From positions 6,583-70,582 of the forward strand of contig JBBIQY010000002.1 of assembly GCA_037442085.1 (NCBI GenBank): a stretch of DNA of 64,000 nucleotides, in the 5' to 3' direction. Numbering within the stretch: the stretch's first letter is position 1; each line of letters opens with the position of its first letter. This document shows, in pieces, positions 5,186 through 22,716 of the stretch. Under the pieces are notes generated by a model, which saw only the letters and a list, made by a program, of their open reading frames with translations, did not search any database and was not told where the DNA came from. The position numbers and the translations under genes are program-made. Source of the stretch: Anaerolineae bacterium. GTDB lineage: Bacteria; Chloroflexota; Anaerolineae; Anaerolineales; UBA6663.

Positions 5186-7312
5186 GTGCTGACCCTCGCC
5201 GAAAGAATCATCTTCCTCCTCATGCTCGTCGGCTTCGGCGGATTCACCGCGTGGGGTTTCTTCAATCTTTACCGCATTGTCCGGCGCGGGCGGCCCGCCC
5301 AATCTCCAATCTCTGATCTTCGATCTTTTATTCCGCGGGCCATCAGGGTTCTGCTCGAAATCGGCCTCCAAAAACCCATTTACAAATCCCGTCCTATCCT
5401 CACCACCTTTCATGCCTTCATCTTCTTCGGCTTCTCGTACTATTTCCTCGTCAACGTCAATGATGTGCTGGAGGGGTTCATCCAAGGCTACGATACCGCC
5501 CGGATCAGCTCCGGCCTGCTTGGCCTGATGAATCTGGTCGCCGATGTGCTCAGCCTCGGCGTGCTCATCGGCGTGGCCGTCTTCCTGGTGCGGCGTTTCA
5601 TCGCCAAAGACAAGCGGCTCGATTTCAACCCCAACGTGCTGCTGCAGCCGGCCGTGACCGGCGGCGTTCAGCGCGACTCGCTGATCGTCGGCGGATTCAT
5701 CCTCTGCCACGTCGGCGCGCGCTTTACCGGCCAGGCGCTGCGGCTGGCCGAGGGGGAGGTCTTCAACCCCATGCAGCCGTTCGCCAGCACCCTGTCGCTG
5801 GCGCTGCGCGGCTGGCCCGATTACACCGTGGCCATTCACGCGGCGTGGTGGCTGGCCGTCGGCCTGATCGTCGTCTTCCTGCCGTATTTCATCATCAGCA
5901 AGCACATCCATCTCATGGTTGCGCCGCTCAACCTTGCGCTGGCAAAACAGACGCCGCGCGGGCGCCTCGACCCGGCACTGCCGAAAGAGGCGCCGCCCGA
6001 AACCGCTCCCGGCGCGGGGACGCTGGCCGACCTCGCCTGGCCGCGCCTGCTCGACGCCTACGCCTGCATCATGTGCAACCGCTGTCAGGACGTGTGCCCG
6101 GCGCACAGCTCGCTGCGGCCCCTCAGCCCGTCGGCGCTGGAGATCAACAAACGCTATTGGCTCAACGCCTATTTCACCGCCTTCGCGGGCGGGGCCGCCT
6201 CGCCGCCGCTCACGGAGTTCGCCATCAGTCCCGAGGCGGTTTGGAGTTGCACCACGTGTTATGCCTGTGTGCGCGTCTGCCCCGTCGGCAACGAGCCGAT
6301 GGCCGACATTGTGGACATCCGCCGCCGATGGGTGAACGACGGCGCGGAACTCGACAGCGGCCTCCAGTCCACGCTGGAGAAGATCGGCAAGACGGGCAAC
6401 TCGTTCGGGCAGGCAGCGCGCAACCGCGCCAAGTGGGCGCAGACCGGCCTCGATTTCAAGATCAAAGACGTTCGCAAAGAGCCGGCCGAGTATTTGTGGT
6501 TCGTCGGCGACTATGCCGCGTTCGACGCGCGCGTGCAAGAGATCACGCGCACGGTGGCGCGCGTCCTACATCACGCCGGCGTGGACTTCGGCATCCTGTA
6601 TGACGCCGAGAGGAACTCGGGCAACGACGTGCGGCGCGTGGGTGAGGAGGGATTGTTCGAGCAGCTCGCCGAGCAGAACATCGCGACGATGAACAAGTGC
6701 AAGTTCGAGCGCGTCATCACCACCGACCCGCACACGCTCAACGCGCTCAGGAACGAATACCCTGACTACGGCGGCAAGTGGGAGACGATCCACTACACCC
6801 GCCTGCTCATGCAATTGATTGACGCCGGCAGACTCCAACTCAAACACAAACTCTCCCACTACCGGGCGACTTTCCATGACCCGTGCTATCTCGGGCGCTA
6901 CAACCAGGGCTTCAATCCGCCCCGCGCGCTGATCCGGGCGACGGGCTGCGACTTCGTCGAGATGCCGCGCAACAAGGAGAACTCGTACTGCTGCGGGGCG
7001 GGCGGCGGCCAAATCTGGATGGGGACGACGCCCGAAGGCGAGCGCCCCGCCGAGCAACGCATCCGTGAGGCGCTCGCCGCTCTCGGCGCTTCGGCCAACG
7101 GCGCAAGCGGCCAAAAACTGCTCTTCGTCGTCGCCTGCCCGAAAGATGTGGTGATGTATACCGATGCCGTCAAAACCACCGGCAGCGAGGGCAAGATCGA
7201 AGTGCGCGACGTGATTCAACTGGTCGCGGAAGCGATGGACTGGAATCACGTAAACACCGAGTTCGCCGAGAACGCTGATTCGGTGAAATCAGCGTCCTCA
7301 GCGAGTCAGTGA
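5186..7312 (+). CDS. Membrane-bound Fe-S oxidoreductase (N-terminal multi-TM domain + 2x[4Fe-4S] + CCG domains), EMO / DsrMK-fusion type putative ETF:menaquinone oxidoreductase
   Basis: Hydrophobic N-terminal ~270 aa. Fe-S motifs CIMCNRCQDVCP and CTTCYACVRVCP. CCG motifs DPCYLGR, YCCGAGGG and ACPKD. The track ORF 4607-7312 overlaps etfA, so GTG 5186 after the hairpin is taken as the start. Confidence 0.8.
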   Translation: MLTLAERIIFLLMLVGFGGFTAWGFFNLYRIVRRGRPAQSPISDLRSFIPRAIRVLLEIGLQKPIYKSRPILTTFHAFIFFGFSYYFLVNVNDVLEGFIQGYDTARISSGLLGLMNLVADVLSLGVLIGVAVFLVRRFIAKDKRLDFNPNVLLQPAVTGGVQRDSLIVGGFILCHVGARFTGQALRLAEGEVFNPMQPFASTLSLALRGWPDYTVAIHAAWWLAVGLIVVFLPYFIISKHIHLMVAPLNLALAKQTPRGRLDPALPKEAPPETAPGAGTLADLAWPRLLDAYACIMCNRCQDVCPAHSSLRPLSPSALEINKRYWLNAYFTAFAGGAASPPLTEFAISPEAVWSCTTCYACVRVCPVGNEPMADIVDIRRRWVNDGAELDSGLQSTLEKIGKTGNSFGQAARNRAKWAQTGLDFKIKDVRKEPAEYLWFVGDYAAFDARVQEITRTVARVLHHAGVDFGILYDAERNSGNDVRRVGEEGLFEQLAEQNIATMNKCKFERVITTDPHTLNALRNEYPDYGGKWETIHYTRLLMQLIDAGRLQLKHKLSHYRATFHDPCYLGRYNQGFNPPRALIRATGCDFVEMPRNKENSYCCGAGGGQIWMGTTPEGERPAEQRIREALAALGASANGASGQKLLFVVACPKDVVMYTDAVKTTGSEGKIEVRDVIQLVAEAMDWNHVNTEFAENADSVKSASSASQ
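5298..5330 (+). repeat. In-CDS heptamer tract (CCAATCT-type, 4 units) inside the EMO gene
   Basis: cccaatctccaatctctgatcttcgatctttta encodes AQSPISDLRSFI. Confidence 0.6.
7271..7310 (+). repeat. Family B element (AACGCTGATT-loop-TCAGCGTCCTCAGCG)
   Basis: aacgctgattcggtgaaatcagcgtcctcagcgagtcagt forms the last codons of the EMO gene. It is near-identical in its ends to 18773-18830. Confidence 0.6.
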
Positions 7313-7321
7313 CTCAACGGC

Positions 7322-7771
7322 ATGGCTCAAGGTCTCAACAACCTTTCCTCCGCCCTGGCGCTGCGCCTGCGCGACATCGCCCGGATGCTGGACCGGATTG
7401 ACCGGCTGGAGTCCGGCACGGGCGAGTGGCTGGCCGCGCAAGGTGAAAGCGCGCTGCGAGACGCCGCCACCGACATGACCCTGCGCGCCCTGCGCGTCGC
7501 CGCCGACCCGACGAACTTCGCTCTCCTCAACTTCCTCGCGACGCACGCTGCCACGCCCATGGCCGAGCTCGAGAAAGCCACCGGCCTCGGGCGGCTGGCG
7601 CTCGCGGAGCGGGTGAACGACCTGGTGCAGGTCGGGCTCGCCGGACGGAACATTGACACCGATCACGTGCAGTGCACGGCCGGCGGCGCGGCGCTGGTGG
7701 AATTGATTGACAGCATTGGCGCGACGACGGCGAAACGACTGGCAGAAGCGTTGCAGCCGATCACCCGCTAA
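7322..7771 (+). CDS. Putative winged-helix transcriptional regulator
   Basis: 149 aa with an HTH-like stretch TPMAELEKATGLGRLALAERVNDLVQVGLAGR. GC3-biased. No strong SD. Confidence 0.5.
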   Translation: MAQGLNNLSSALALRLRDIARMLDRIDRLESGTGEWLAAQGESALRDAATDMTLRALRVAADPTNFALLNFLATHAATPMAELEKATGLGRLALAERVNDLVQVGLAGRNIDTDHVQCTAGGAALVELIDSIGATTAKRLAEALQPITR

Positions 7772-21732: not shown

Positions 21733-21780
21733 AGGAAGAAGGAAGCAATGGAGATTCAGCCTTCATCCTTCAGCCTTCAT
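21722..21780 (+). repeat. Perfect 15-bp inverted repeat (ATGAAGGCTGAAGGA / TCCTTCAGCCTTCAT) bracketing a gene junction
   Basis: The left arm (21722-21736) contains the upstream TGA. The loop holds a purine-rich SD and ATG 21748. The right arm (21766-21780) lies in codons 7-11 of the next gene and is half-duplicated at 21755-21766. Confidence 0.85.
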
Positions 21781-22716
21781 CCTTTGCTTTCCTACCTCTG
21801 GCTTCACGAACCTGATGCCGAGACCATTGTCCGCGCTGTGAATGAGCTGGGCCTGCCCGCAGCCGCGCCCGCCGAGCTTGCCTCGGCCTACACCGATGTC
21901 TTTGTGCTCAACGTCCCGCCTTACGGCACGGTGTTCACGGGCCCCGATGGCGAGATGAACGGCCCGGAGGCGCAGCAACTGGCGGCGTTGTTCGAGTTGC
22001 ACGCCTATTCTCCACCCGAACTGAACGAGGTTGGTGCGCCCGACCATGTGGGTGTGTGCCTTGGCTTTCTGGCGCATTTGGAGGAAAGGGGATTGGAGAT
22101 GAGAGATTGGAGATTGGAGGTTGGAGATTGGGGCTTCGATTGGATCCCGCCAGCGTGTCTCGCTATAGAACGCGAACCAACCGCACATGCCTTCTACCGC
22201 GCCCTGGCGGCCACTACTCGACAACACCTGTTTGTGAGGCTGAACGAAGCCAGGCCCTCCGGGGCTGAGGCCCCTTCGGCAAGCTCATGGCAGGCGCCGC
22301 GCTTCGCTCAGGATAACGGCGATCATCCGCACTCTGAAATCTACAATCTGCAATCCGAGGACGAAGTCCGCCTGCACCACATCATCCGCTTCTTCCTCGC
22401 CCCCGCCCGGTGCGGCATGTTCCTTTCGCGCTCGCAGATGGGGCGGATGGCCGCAGAGTTGGGGCTGCGCCTCCCGTTCGGCTCGCGGTTCGAAGTGGCC
22501 GAGAGGCTGTTTGCGTCTGCGGGGGAGACGGATCAGGTTGAGCAGCTGATCGCGGCGCTGGAAGCCGAGATTAGTGATTGGAGAATGGCATATCGCGCCT
22601 GGGCGGAGAAGTGCGCGGCGTGGCGGCCATACGCCGAAGCCTGGCTGGCACGGACGGCGCAGGCGCAGCGTACGCTGGCCGAGATGCAGCAAATAGTGAC
22701 GACGACGCTCACCTGA
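21748..22716 (+). CDS. TorD/DmsD/NarJ-like redox-enzyme maturation chaperone with an extra C-terminal domain
   Basis: YTDVFVLNVPPYGTVF...PDHVGVCLGFLAHL matches the TorD-family pattern. Residues ~150-322 are unrecognised. Confidence 0.6.
   Translation: MEIQPSSFSLHPLLSYLWLHEPDAETIVRAVNELGLPAAAPAELASAYTDVFVLNVPPYGTVFTGPDGEMNGPEAQQLAALFELHAYSPPELNEVGAPDHVGVCLGFLAHLEERGLEMRDWRLEVGDWGFDWIPPACLAIEREPTAHAFYRALAATTRQHLFVRLNEARPSGAEAPSASSWQAPRFAQDNGDHPHSEIYNLQSEDEVRLHHIIRFFLAPARCGMFLSRSQMGRMAAELGLRLPFGSRFEVAERLFASAGETDQVEQLIAALEAEISDWRMAYRAWAEKCAAWRPYAEAWLARTAQAQRTLAEMQQIVTTTLT
22090..22143 (+). repeat. In-CDS heptamer tract (complement orientation, GATTGGA x ~6) inside the TorD-like gene
   Basis: ggattggagatgagagattggagattggaggttggagattggggcttcgattgg encodes GLEMRDWRLEVGDWGFDW. 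Confidence 0.65.

Follow-up and report, generated by a model that had tools for sequence, protein, structure and literature searches.

Short tandem arrays of seven-nucleotide units were found in frame inside enzyme genes of a 64,000-nt stretch of contig JBBIQY010000002.1 (assembly GCA_037442085.1, G+C content of about 65%), referred to here as the window. Six tracts were followed up, in the genes for a membrane Fe-S/CCG oxidoreductase (EMO), a lipoate-protein ligase, a 4Fe-4S/NrfD fusion protein (FeS-NrfD), a molybdopterin oxidoreductase (the molybdoenzyme) and a chaperone of the TorD/NarJ family (the TorD-like protein, with two tracts). As judged from their units, the tracts belong to the repeat family CAAACTC, CAAACTT and CAATCTC (with TTGGAG as core of the opposite strand) that occupies the gene junctions of the same region. 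In the reading we prefer, with a probability of roughly 0.7, a dispersed heptanucleotide family resembling the short tandemly repeated repetitive (STRR) sequences spills into permissive protein segments, where slippage acts under selection for the reading frame. The finding is well supported as an observation. The original prediction, made from this DNA alone, had offered two explanations: insertion of repeats into loops, which proved partly right, and switching, which is unsupported.

Period-7 tracts in the coding sequence

Re-reading of the sequence confirmed the predicted coordinates and in-frame peptides of all six tracts. Windows with at least 17 out of 21 self-matching positions numbered 79 at period 7, versus 0–3 at each other period from 3 to 12. 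The exact word CCAATCT by itself is not significantly enriched (11 matches versus 5.6 expected, with 4 of 100 shuffles reaching 11), and therefore a periodic consensus, CAA[A/T]CT[C/T], was used in its place and scored over 21 nt on both strands at thresholds of 16, 17, 18 and 19. The genes located between 1 and 24 kb gave 12, 8, 7 and 5 coding segments at these thresholds, the 12 including a few junction arms that overlap gene ends, while 200 codon shuffles of the same genes gave means of 0.67, 0.09, 0 and 0. Between 24 and 64 kb, 37 kb of coding sequence yielded 1, 0, 0 and 0 segments. The excess over expectation on which the original prediction had staked itself is present, with 12 segments for 0.67 expected.

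The periodicity had been described as strict and is in fact degenerate, with an identity at lag 7 of 0.73 for the EMO tract, 0.75 for the ligase, 0.53 for the molybdoenzyme, 0.68 and 0.70 for the first and second TorD-like tracts and 0.56 for NrfD. The longest perfect runs in the arrays are about 2.1–2.4 units. Five of the six tracts contain three or more head-to-tail units above chance. NrfD is a borderline case, its lag 8 (0.60) being as strong as its lag 7, and is counted as a tract because the orthologue comparison shows a derived patch.

For this comparison 161 molybdoenzyme orthologues were assembled (80 genome loci, 80 metagenome loci and L081; 435 kb of coding sequence), and protein searches supplied 120 TorD-like and 120 EMO relatives. 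L081 is a JGI contig with DNA about 93% identical to the window across 12295–22784. The closest genome match of the molybdoenzyme is found in an Anaerolineales metagenome-assembled genome (MAG), at 86% amino-acid identity and with synteny kept, and its closest homologues suggest that the host is probably Anaerolineales-like (Chloroflexota). The identities of the tract-bearing genes are confirmed by Pfam.

At every site most orthologues are repeat-free, which makes the tracts a derived state and agrees with the prediction that they are lineage-specific. They had also been placed one base away from the junction unit. This distance is not consistent, as the orthologous in-frame tracts of L081, L088, L159, L086 and L089 hold the junction units CAAACTC and CAAACTT themselves.

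That ordinary coding sequence merely looks periodic, or that selection acts on the peptide, is hardly credible as an account of the whole set, even if single cases fit it. The scan match at 20525–20548 encodes the universally conserved LSWEIDPDG and was rejected as a chance false positive, the NrfD tract scores just 16/21, and one of the TorD-like peptides is conserved among relatives that are 65–67% identical (see below). The codon shuffles argue otherwise, as does the lack of the tracts in most orthologues, a comparison that rules out chance for five of the six. It is moreover the DNA itself that is periodic and not the peptide alone, and its units are shared with the junction arrays. An assembly artefact was ruled out because assemblies made independently show the tracts too.

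Arrays of CAAACTC, CAATCTC and CAACCTC are free of stop codons in all frames of both strands, so that each frame gives the same cyclic peptide, QTPNSKL or QSPISNL in the forward and EIGDWRL in the reverse orientation. The units CAAACTT, CAATCTT and CAAATCT create a TGA in reverse, and none of them is present in the reverse-oriented TorD-like tract.

Tract length and placement among relatives

The molybdoenzyme gene (18841–21732) carries a tract of about eight units at 19724..19790 on the forward strand (scan score 19/21), encoding LNFRIQTSSPQSPVSNLPIS; an example of a peptide spanning an in-frame tract is QSPVSNLPISFEAFEAALK. Measured between the conserved anchors Trp313 and Phe340 (numbering of the window protein), the loop is 19 amino acids (aa) long in 111 of the 161 orthologues (WEEYLRAEHPDxPxTFExF) and 28 aa in the window, a gain of 9 aa. 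In the closest clade CAAACTC/CAATCTC arrays stand in place of the loop, with 20, 21, 23, 28, 31, 36 or 38 aa, and the loops of this clade measure 60, 63, 69, 84, 93, 108, 114 and 138 nt in the DNA. Over the whole molybdoenzyme coding sequence, window and L081 differ by a single indel, which lies in the tract and consists of a 30-nt block, GAACTCCCAAACTTCAAACTCCCAATCTCC, made of two 7+8 pairs. An exact 21-nt difference in the loop separates L088 from L159 and L001 from the window. Steps in tract length among relatives are mostly 21 nt (three units) or 30 nt, with some off-unit steps, for example of 24 nt.

The expected variation in unit number was thus recovered in the assemblies of relatives, where tract lengths differ by in-frame steps only; related genomes differ at the same locus for the molybdoenzyme, EMO and TorD-like tracts. 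None of the 161 molybdoenzyme alleles, all from consensus assemblies, is frameshifted, and all of their length differences are multiples of 3 nt. Removal of the tract from the mRNA or the protein, in the manner of an intron, an intein or a translational bypass, was considered and rejected, because removal would not require inserts that are open and multiples of 3 nt, as all the inserts in this loop are.

Phase-variable contingency loci are known from the simple sequence repeats of Haemophilus and Neisseria, which serve surface or restriction functions. Like these loci, the tracts hold within a reading frame a unit whose length is not divisible by 3, and by the logic of the sequence slippage of a single unit would shift the frame; tract length, too, does vary among relatives. 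It is nevertheless very improbable that gain or loss of one 7-nt unit toggles the enzymes in subpopulations. The arrays are too degenerate for long perfect runs, with about 2.4 perfect units at most, and they are sited in the middle of genes for housekeeping redox and cofactor enzymes, not at promoters or 5′ ends or in surface or restriction genes. No out-of-frame alleles accompany the in-frame ones, so that ON and OFF states are not represented, and the patches in ligase and NrfD show no length variation. The proposal of slippage-prone contingency sites therefore has support as far as slippage goes, in that copy number drifts among relatives under selection for frame, and none for on/off switching.

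The molybdoenzyme loop is a hot spot for such arrays. All 18 strict period-7 arrays in the 435 kb of orthologous coding sequence are located at aa 318–333. Other periods gave 0–3 matches across the gene, except that seven period-14 matches lie in this loop, where they represent two-unit multiples of the period-7 arrays. At least seven different units have entered the loop in several phyla. Besides CAAACTC/CAATCTC in the clade of the window, these are GGACGAA with TTCGTCC as a two-armed hairpin (L006), CAGAGGT (L071), GCAGAAG (L059), four copies of GGACTCG (L121), CGACCGC (L108), CAGTGA/TCAGTTA (L094) and CCGGTCG (L102); the inserts of L006, L094, L102 and L108 are two-armed hairpins. It is precisely at this loop that homology to the solved structure of PsrA (PDB 2vpw) is interrupted. 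No heptamer arrays were seen among the 161 orthologues in the protein's remaining indel-variable regions (aa 20–50, 660–710, 860 and 950).

In L082 and L083 the heptamer tract of the loop encloses in frame an imperfect hairpin of 24 nt, CACCCGTGCTCGCACGAGTGCGGG (L082, around 1440–1520). This hairpin recalls the very small dispersed repeats that Elhai, in 2008, reportedly found inside the heptameric repeats of Nostoc.

The EMO gene (5186–7312), preceded by genes for the beta and alpha subunits of an electron transfer flavoprotein (ETF, assigned by Pfam), has its tract at 5296..5331 on the forward strand (CAATCTC CAATCTC TGATCTT CGATCTT; 19/21), encoding QSPISDLRS in the loop that follows transmembrane helix 1. 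The insert is absent from most relatives, which have PA-PKLxxLIP, and also from P0122 and P0124 at 70–76% identity. It adds 3 aa in the window and in P0127 and 14 aa in P0121 (ISNFPIPTLQFSNLQFSNL).

The tracts of ligase and NrfD are patches rather than insertions. In the ligase gene (10494–11702) the tract CCATCTC CGATCTC CAATCTC at 11248..11281 on the forward strand (19/21; peptide AISDLQSQ) leaves the length unchanged with respect to orthologues. Loci L101, L094 and L032 have AIAALERDKY or AIRELEERKY where the window has AISDLQSQKY, L087 AISNLQSQKY (TCCAATCTCCAATCTCAA) and L089 AIANLQSQKY, all of equal length, and in the DNA a cluster of 18 nt has been replaced by about 2.5 heptamer units. 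The FeS-NrfD gene (16784–18352) has a weak tract of mixed 7/8-nt spacing at 17823..17853 on the forward strand (peptide QLLNLQFSN). The corresponding segment counts 34 aa with HLFGLxDLAN in 80 of 130 orthologues and 33 aa, one fewer, in the window; a CAATCTC-type patch is present only in the window, L081 and L089. Elsewhere in this gene, at 17359–17365, a +1/−1 pair of single-base indels 6 nt apart distinguishes the window from L081. Either the two relatives differ by a frameshift that was compensated, or one of the sequences contains a sequencing error.

In the TorD-like gene (21748–22716, forward strand) the first tract, at 22078..22143, has its units on the reverse strand (GAGATTG and GAGGTTG; 20/21) and encodes GLEMRDWRLEVGDWGFDW. 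The ancestral segment of 26 aa is extended to 30 aa in the window and L081, a gain of 4 aa. The nearest clade has LEIGELGLDW and is 7 aa (21 nt, three units) shorter. In an AlphaFold model of moderate quality (mean predicted local distance difference test, pLDDT, of 61.6) the tract falls in a predicted helix-loop segment with a pLDDT of 65–76, where support from the model is weak.

The second TorD-like tract (GAAATCT ACAATCT GCAATCC, 22329..22358, forward strand, 17/21) encodes SEIYNLQS. Relatives have in this region heptamer peptides of the QSPI-, PITNYQLPI- or SIFNLQSPI- type and of varying length, and six loci (L087, L089, L099, L159, L095 and L101) hold strict arrays of several unit types at aa 184–198. 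Within the linker of L095 and L101 the unit is TTCATCC, a junction unit. Residues 174–229, which hold the tract, have a pLDDT below 50, and the tract lies in a variable, probably disordered linker.

A further probable tract in the same gene, at 22563..22591 on the reverse strand (18/21; EISDWRM), was added to the original set. Relative P0002 has EIGDWRI at this site, the exact translation cycle of GAGATTG, and other orthologues have EVAAWAT or EVEAWAS at equal length. The site is probably an old, length-neutral patch in reverse orientation.

A different kind of insert was seen where orthologues align to aa 105–134 of the TorD-like protein. L090 and L092 carry here a 24-aa in-frame insert with GTCATTCCGAGCCCCGAAGGGGCGAGGAATCTC, a G+C-rich hairpin element, and L084, L087, L099 and L159 have other small hairpins at the site. 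The site gathers hairpin elements besides heptamer arrays.

Most of the tracts occupy variable stretches of proteins that are conserved elsewhere. In terms of length, three of the six are longer than the ancestral segment and two are length-neutral patches, the sixth being located in a hypervariable linker. The description of the tracts as insertions into conserved enzymes consequently applies to the molybdoenzyme (+9 aa), the first TorD-like tract (+4 aa) and EMO (+3 aa), and not to the ligase (0) or NrfD (−1). The idea of invasions tolerated in loops fits the molybdoenzyme, EMO and both TorD-like tracts, while those of ligase and NrfD are length-neutral replacements.

Arrays and hairpins at gene junctions

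The CAAACTC-type family is abundant in the lineage and has its main habitat at junctions of co-directional genes. Within these 64 kb of genome it occurs at many loci, mainly intergenic. Seven junctions between 1 and 11 kb carry a hairpin built from a forward CAAACTC/CAAACTT array followed by an inverted array (940–1035, 3203–3279, 4039–4142, 5104–5183, 8904–8976, 9427–9508 and 10408–10490). Hairpins of this type fold far better than shuffled sequence, with RNA z-scores of −3.8 and −5.4. A single-arm array of the CAAACTY family (TTTGAAGTTTGGAGTTCGAGC) at 11690..11722 on the reverse strand (18/21) supplies the TGA stop of the ligase gene. The in-frame tracts, in contrast, have no inverted partner and no long-range pairing with other arrays in the window, and fold no better than shuffled sequence (four of them have z between +0.4 and +0.8, and the second TorD-like tract has −0.04).

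The junction between the molybdoenzyme and TorD-like genes is occupied by a hairpin of another unit family (21708..21787, forward strand), with arms that are 95% complementary. One arm holds GAATTAT and GAAGGAA units and the other TTCAGCC and TTCATCC. Its 5′ arm encodes the final codons of the molybdoenzyme (YRIMNYEG and the stop), and its 3′ arm the N-terminus IQPSSFSLHP of the TorD-like protein, provided that the ATG at 21748 is the start. N-termini of the HPSSFILHP type and TTCATCC arrays recur among TorD-like relatives. Instead of this hairpin, L081 has (9915–10010) a single-arm array in which units of GTTTGAA, GTTTGGC and GTTTGGA number about 11. As seen from these two contigs, array families turn over very fast.

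The 3′ arms of five junction hairpins (940–1035, 3203–3279, 4039–4142, 5104–5183 and 9427–9508) contain GGAG or GAGG cores resembling Shine-Dalgarno (SD) sequences 8–17 nt before the next start, for instance GGAGTTCATCTCGTG at 5172–5188. The 5′ arms of these hairpins hold the complementary CTCC beside the upstream stop codon. Junction hairpins could in this way mask the ribosome-binding site and so link the translation of adjacent genes.

Two junctions hold an open reading frame (ORF). The NrfD and molybdoenzyme genes are separated by a GxxExxY/PDDEXK_3-like ORF (18353–18823), flanked by inverted tandem 9-nt arrays (ACGCTGACG at 18362–18386 and CTCAGCGTC at 18794–18823). This ORF is intact in L081 (131 aa, PF13366), and in the window it contains a TAG in frame at about 18538. 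L081 has in addition, at 1470–1960, a 107-aa ORF, assigned to the 23S-rRNA-IVP/bAvd family, that is flanked by a GGGTGAA-type array and an inverted TTCACCC copy; the same junction is only 4 nt in the window (13766–13771). On the evidence of their flanking arrays, small selfish-looking ORFs occupy the loops of these predicted repeat hairpins.

The CAAACTC-family repeats are regionally clustered. Neither an array of this family nor a junction hairpin is found in the 41 kb from 22700 to 64000, despite a similar G+C content. The genes of this part include some of very large size (2639, 1948 and 969 aa), and the junctions are tight.

Origin of the arrays and comparison with known repeats

According to the preferred reading, an array of the junction family would now and then be seeded or copied into coding DNA. 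Arrays survive only at tolerant protein sites, namely loops, linkers and termini, and in the assemblies compared their length differs among relatives with only in-frame alleles seen. Replication slippage would alter the unit number and selection would purge changes that are out of frame or too large, leaving the steps of 21 or 30 nt, and net-neutral replacements would remain where the length of a segment is constrained. The arrays would then be tolerated, fast-evolving passengers that make low-complexity loop peptides, and not regulatory switches.

Several observations weigh against this account. Slippage without copying leaves unexplained the presence of one unit family at no fewer than 13 sites in 22 kb, the length-neutral patches in ligase, NrfD and the TorD-like gene (22563–22591), and the swap of array family at the molybdoenzyme–TorD junction between relatives that are 93% identical. 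For these a copying or templating step is needed; templated copying, for example by a template switch to an ectopic array, would be a reasonable addition. Since other indel-variable regions of the molybdoenzyme are array-free, survival in any permissive loop is perhaps too weak an explanation for the hot spot. The evidence for slippage consists of alleles in assemblies. Finally, the peptide of the second TorD-like tract (SEIYNLQSEDE motif) is conserved in proteins that are only 65–67% identical, and part of this tract may be under selection.

The same observations could mean that an active copying process writes arrays at preferred sites and that the in-frame tracts are its footprints, not those of slippage alone. 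Replication or repair could switch templates to an ectopic array, or the copying could be the work of an enzyme tied to the small ORFs nested in hairpins. Besides the clustering of sites in 22 kb with none in the next 41 kb, the neutral patches and the family swap, it would account for the junction unit TTCATCC in the linker of L095 and L101, for a single molybdoenzyme loop being hit by so many units across phyla while other indel-variable regions are spared, and for the PDDEXK_3-type and 23S-IVP/bAvd-type ORFs inside repeat hairpins. We regard it as unlikely. Neither an enzyme nor target-site duplications nor element ends that could be defined came to light. Lineages other than that of the window have in the loop a unit unlike those of the neighbouring junctions, which fits local birth by slippage; insertion with a compensating deletion under selection for length can look like a replaced patch; and survivorship in the most permissive loop can explain the hot spot. 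In its full form, a dedicated or repair-linked process that writes lineage-specific arrays at preferred sites, overwrites resident sequence without change of length and swaps families between near-identical strains, the idea is more doubtful still. Were it true, the molybdoenzyme loop would be a genuine target and not an effect of survivorship, and the PDDEXK_3-type and IVP/bAvd-type ORFs would be candidate machinery or hitch-hikers. The tracts of the window do not have the defined ends, the inverted arms or hairpin, or the target-site duplication of a mobile element, and the window shows no transposase and no other enzyme that might mobilise them.

The preferred, slippage-based reading places the arrays within a known kind of element, of which the lineage and the unit family are new. 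Heptanucleotide repeats are reported to be the commonest class of long simple sequence repeats in many bacteria, with polymerase slippage as proposed origin, and heptamer families have been described in cyanobacteria (STRR), Xanthomonas and Beggiatoaceae (PMC4679880; PMC4692102). As far as the STRR literature (Mazel 1990; Mrazek 2007) is summarised in these two papers, the present arrays resemble it in being tandem 7-nt repeats, dispersed, with lineage-specific units, mostly intergenic near start or stop codons and variable in copy number, with slippage as the presumed mechanism. They differ in their probable Chloroflexota host, in the combination of forward and inverted arrays into junction hairpins and in their repeated in-frame embedding in enzyme genes.

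TAACTGA arrays are translatable in their stop-free orientation and occur in marine Beggiatoaceae, cyanobacteria and Bacteroidetes (MacGregor 2015; PMC4679880). Common to both are the position of heptamers just upstream of start codons and a cyclic peptide of seven residues, LSVISYQ there and QSPISNL or EIGDWRL here. Read forward, TAACTGA contains stop codons, whereas the units of the window are stop-free both ways. TCAGTTA in the loop array of L094 (CAGTGA/TCAGTTA) is the reverse complement of TAACTGA.

In Rickettsia, palindromic elements are inserted in frame into protein-coding genes, as Ogata et al. are said to have reported in 2000. Both cases concern selfish repeats in frame in conserved genes, at exposed positions and with an added peptide. 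The Rickettsia elements are palindromes of 100–150 bp with defined ends, and the inserts of the window are short single-arm heptamer arrays without hairpin potential. In Borgs, the units of repeats within ORFs are multiples of 3; with the 7-nt unit found here only steps of three units or of 7+8 nt survive. Borg tandem repeats are described as creating intrinsically disordered protein regions (bioRxiv 10.1101/2022.05.18.492195), and share with the present tracts a fast evolution within ORFs and low-complexity, probably disordered inserts.

Apparently undescribed are the heptamer junction hairpins, the frame-keeping steps of three units or 7+8 nt between orthologues and the colonisation of one loop in several phyla. 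Together they provide a record, at the level of orthologues, of how a repeat that is not a multiple of 3 lives in essential genes, with stop-free units and survival of three-unit steps. The surface loop of the molybdoenzyme, colonised repeatedly across phyla, is a natural marker of permissive sites for tagging or engineering. The arrays also offer a test bed for why 7-nt repeats dominate the long simple sequence repeats of bacteria and how they spread, and for annotation they account for odd low-complexity inserts and N- or C-terminal extensions in proteins of Chloroflexota MAGs.

An Rfam scan of the window matched one tRNA and nothing else. The gene is located at 34026–34097 (75.6 bits), and its anticodon, read by eye from the loop, is CCC (Gly). 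An unrelated period-7 array at 51222–51261, with about three units of ATGACCG after ATCATCT and ATCATCA, is situated just upstream of a gene starting at about 51268.

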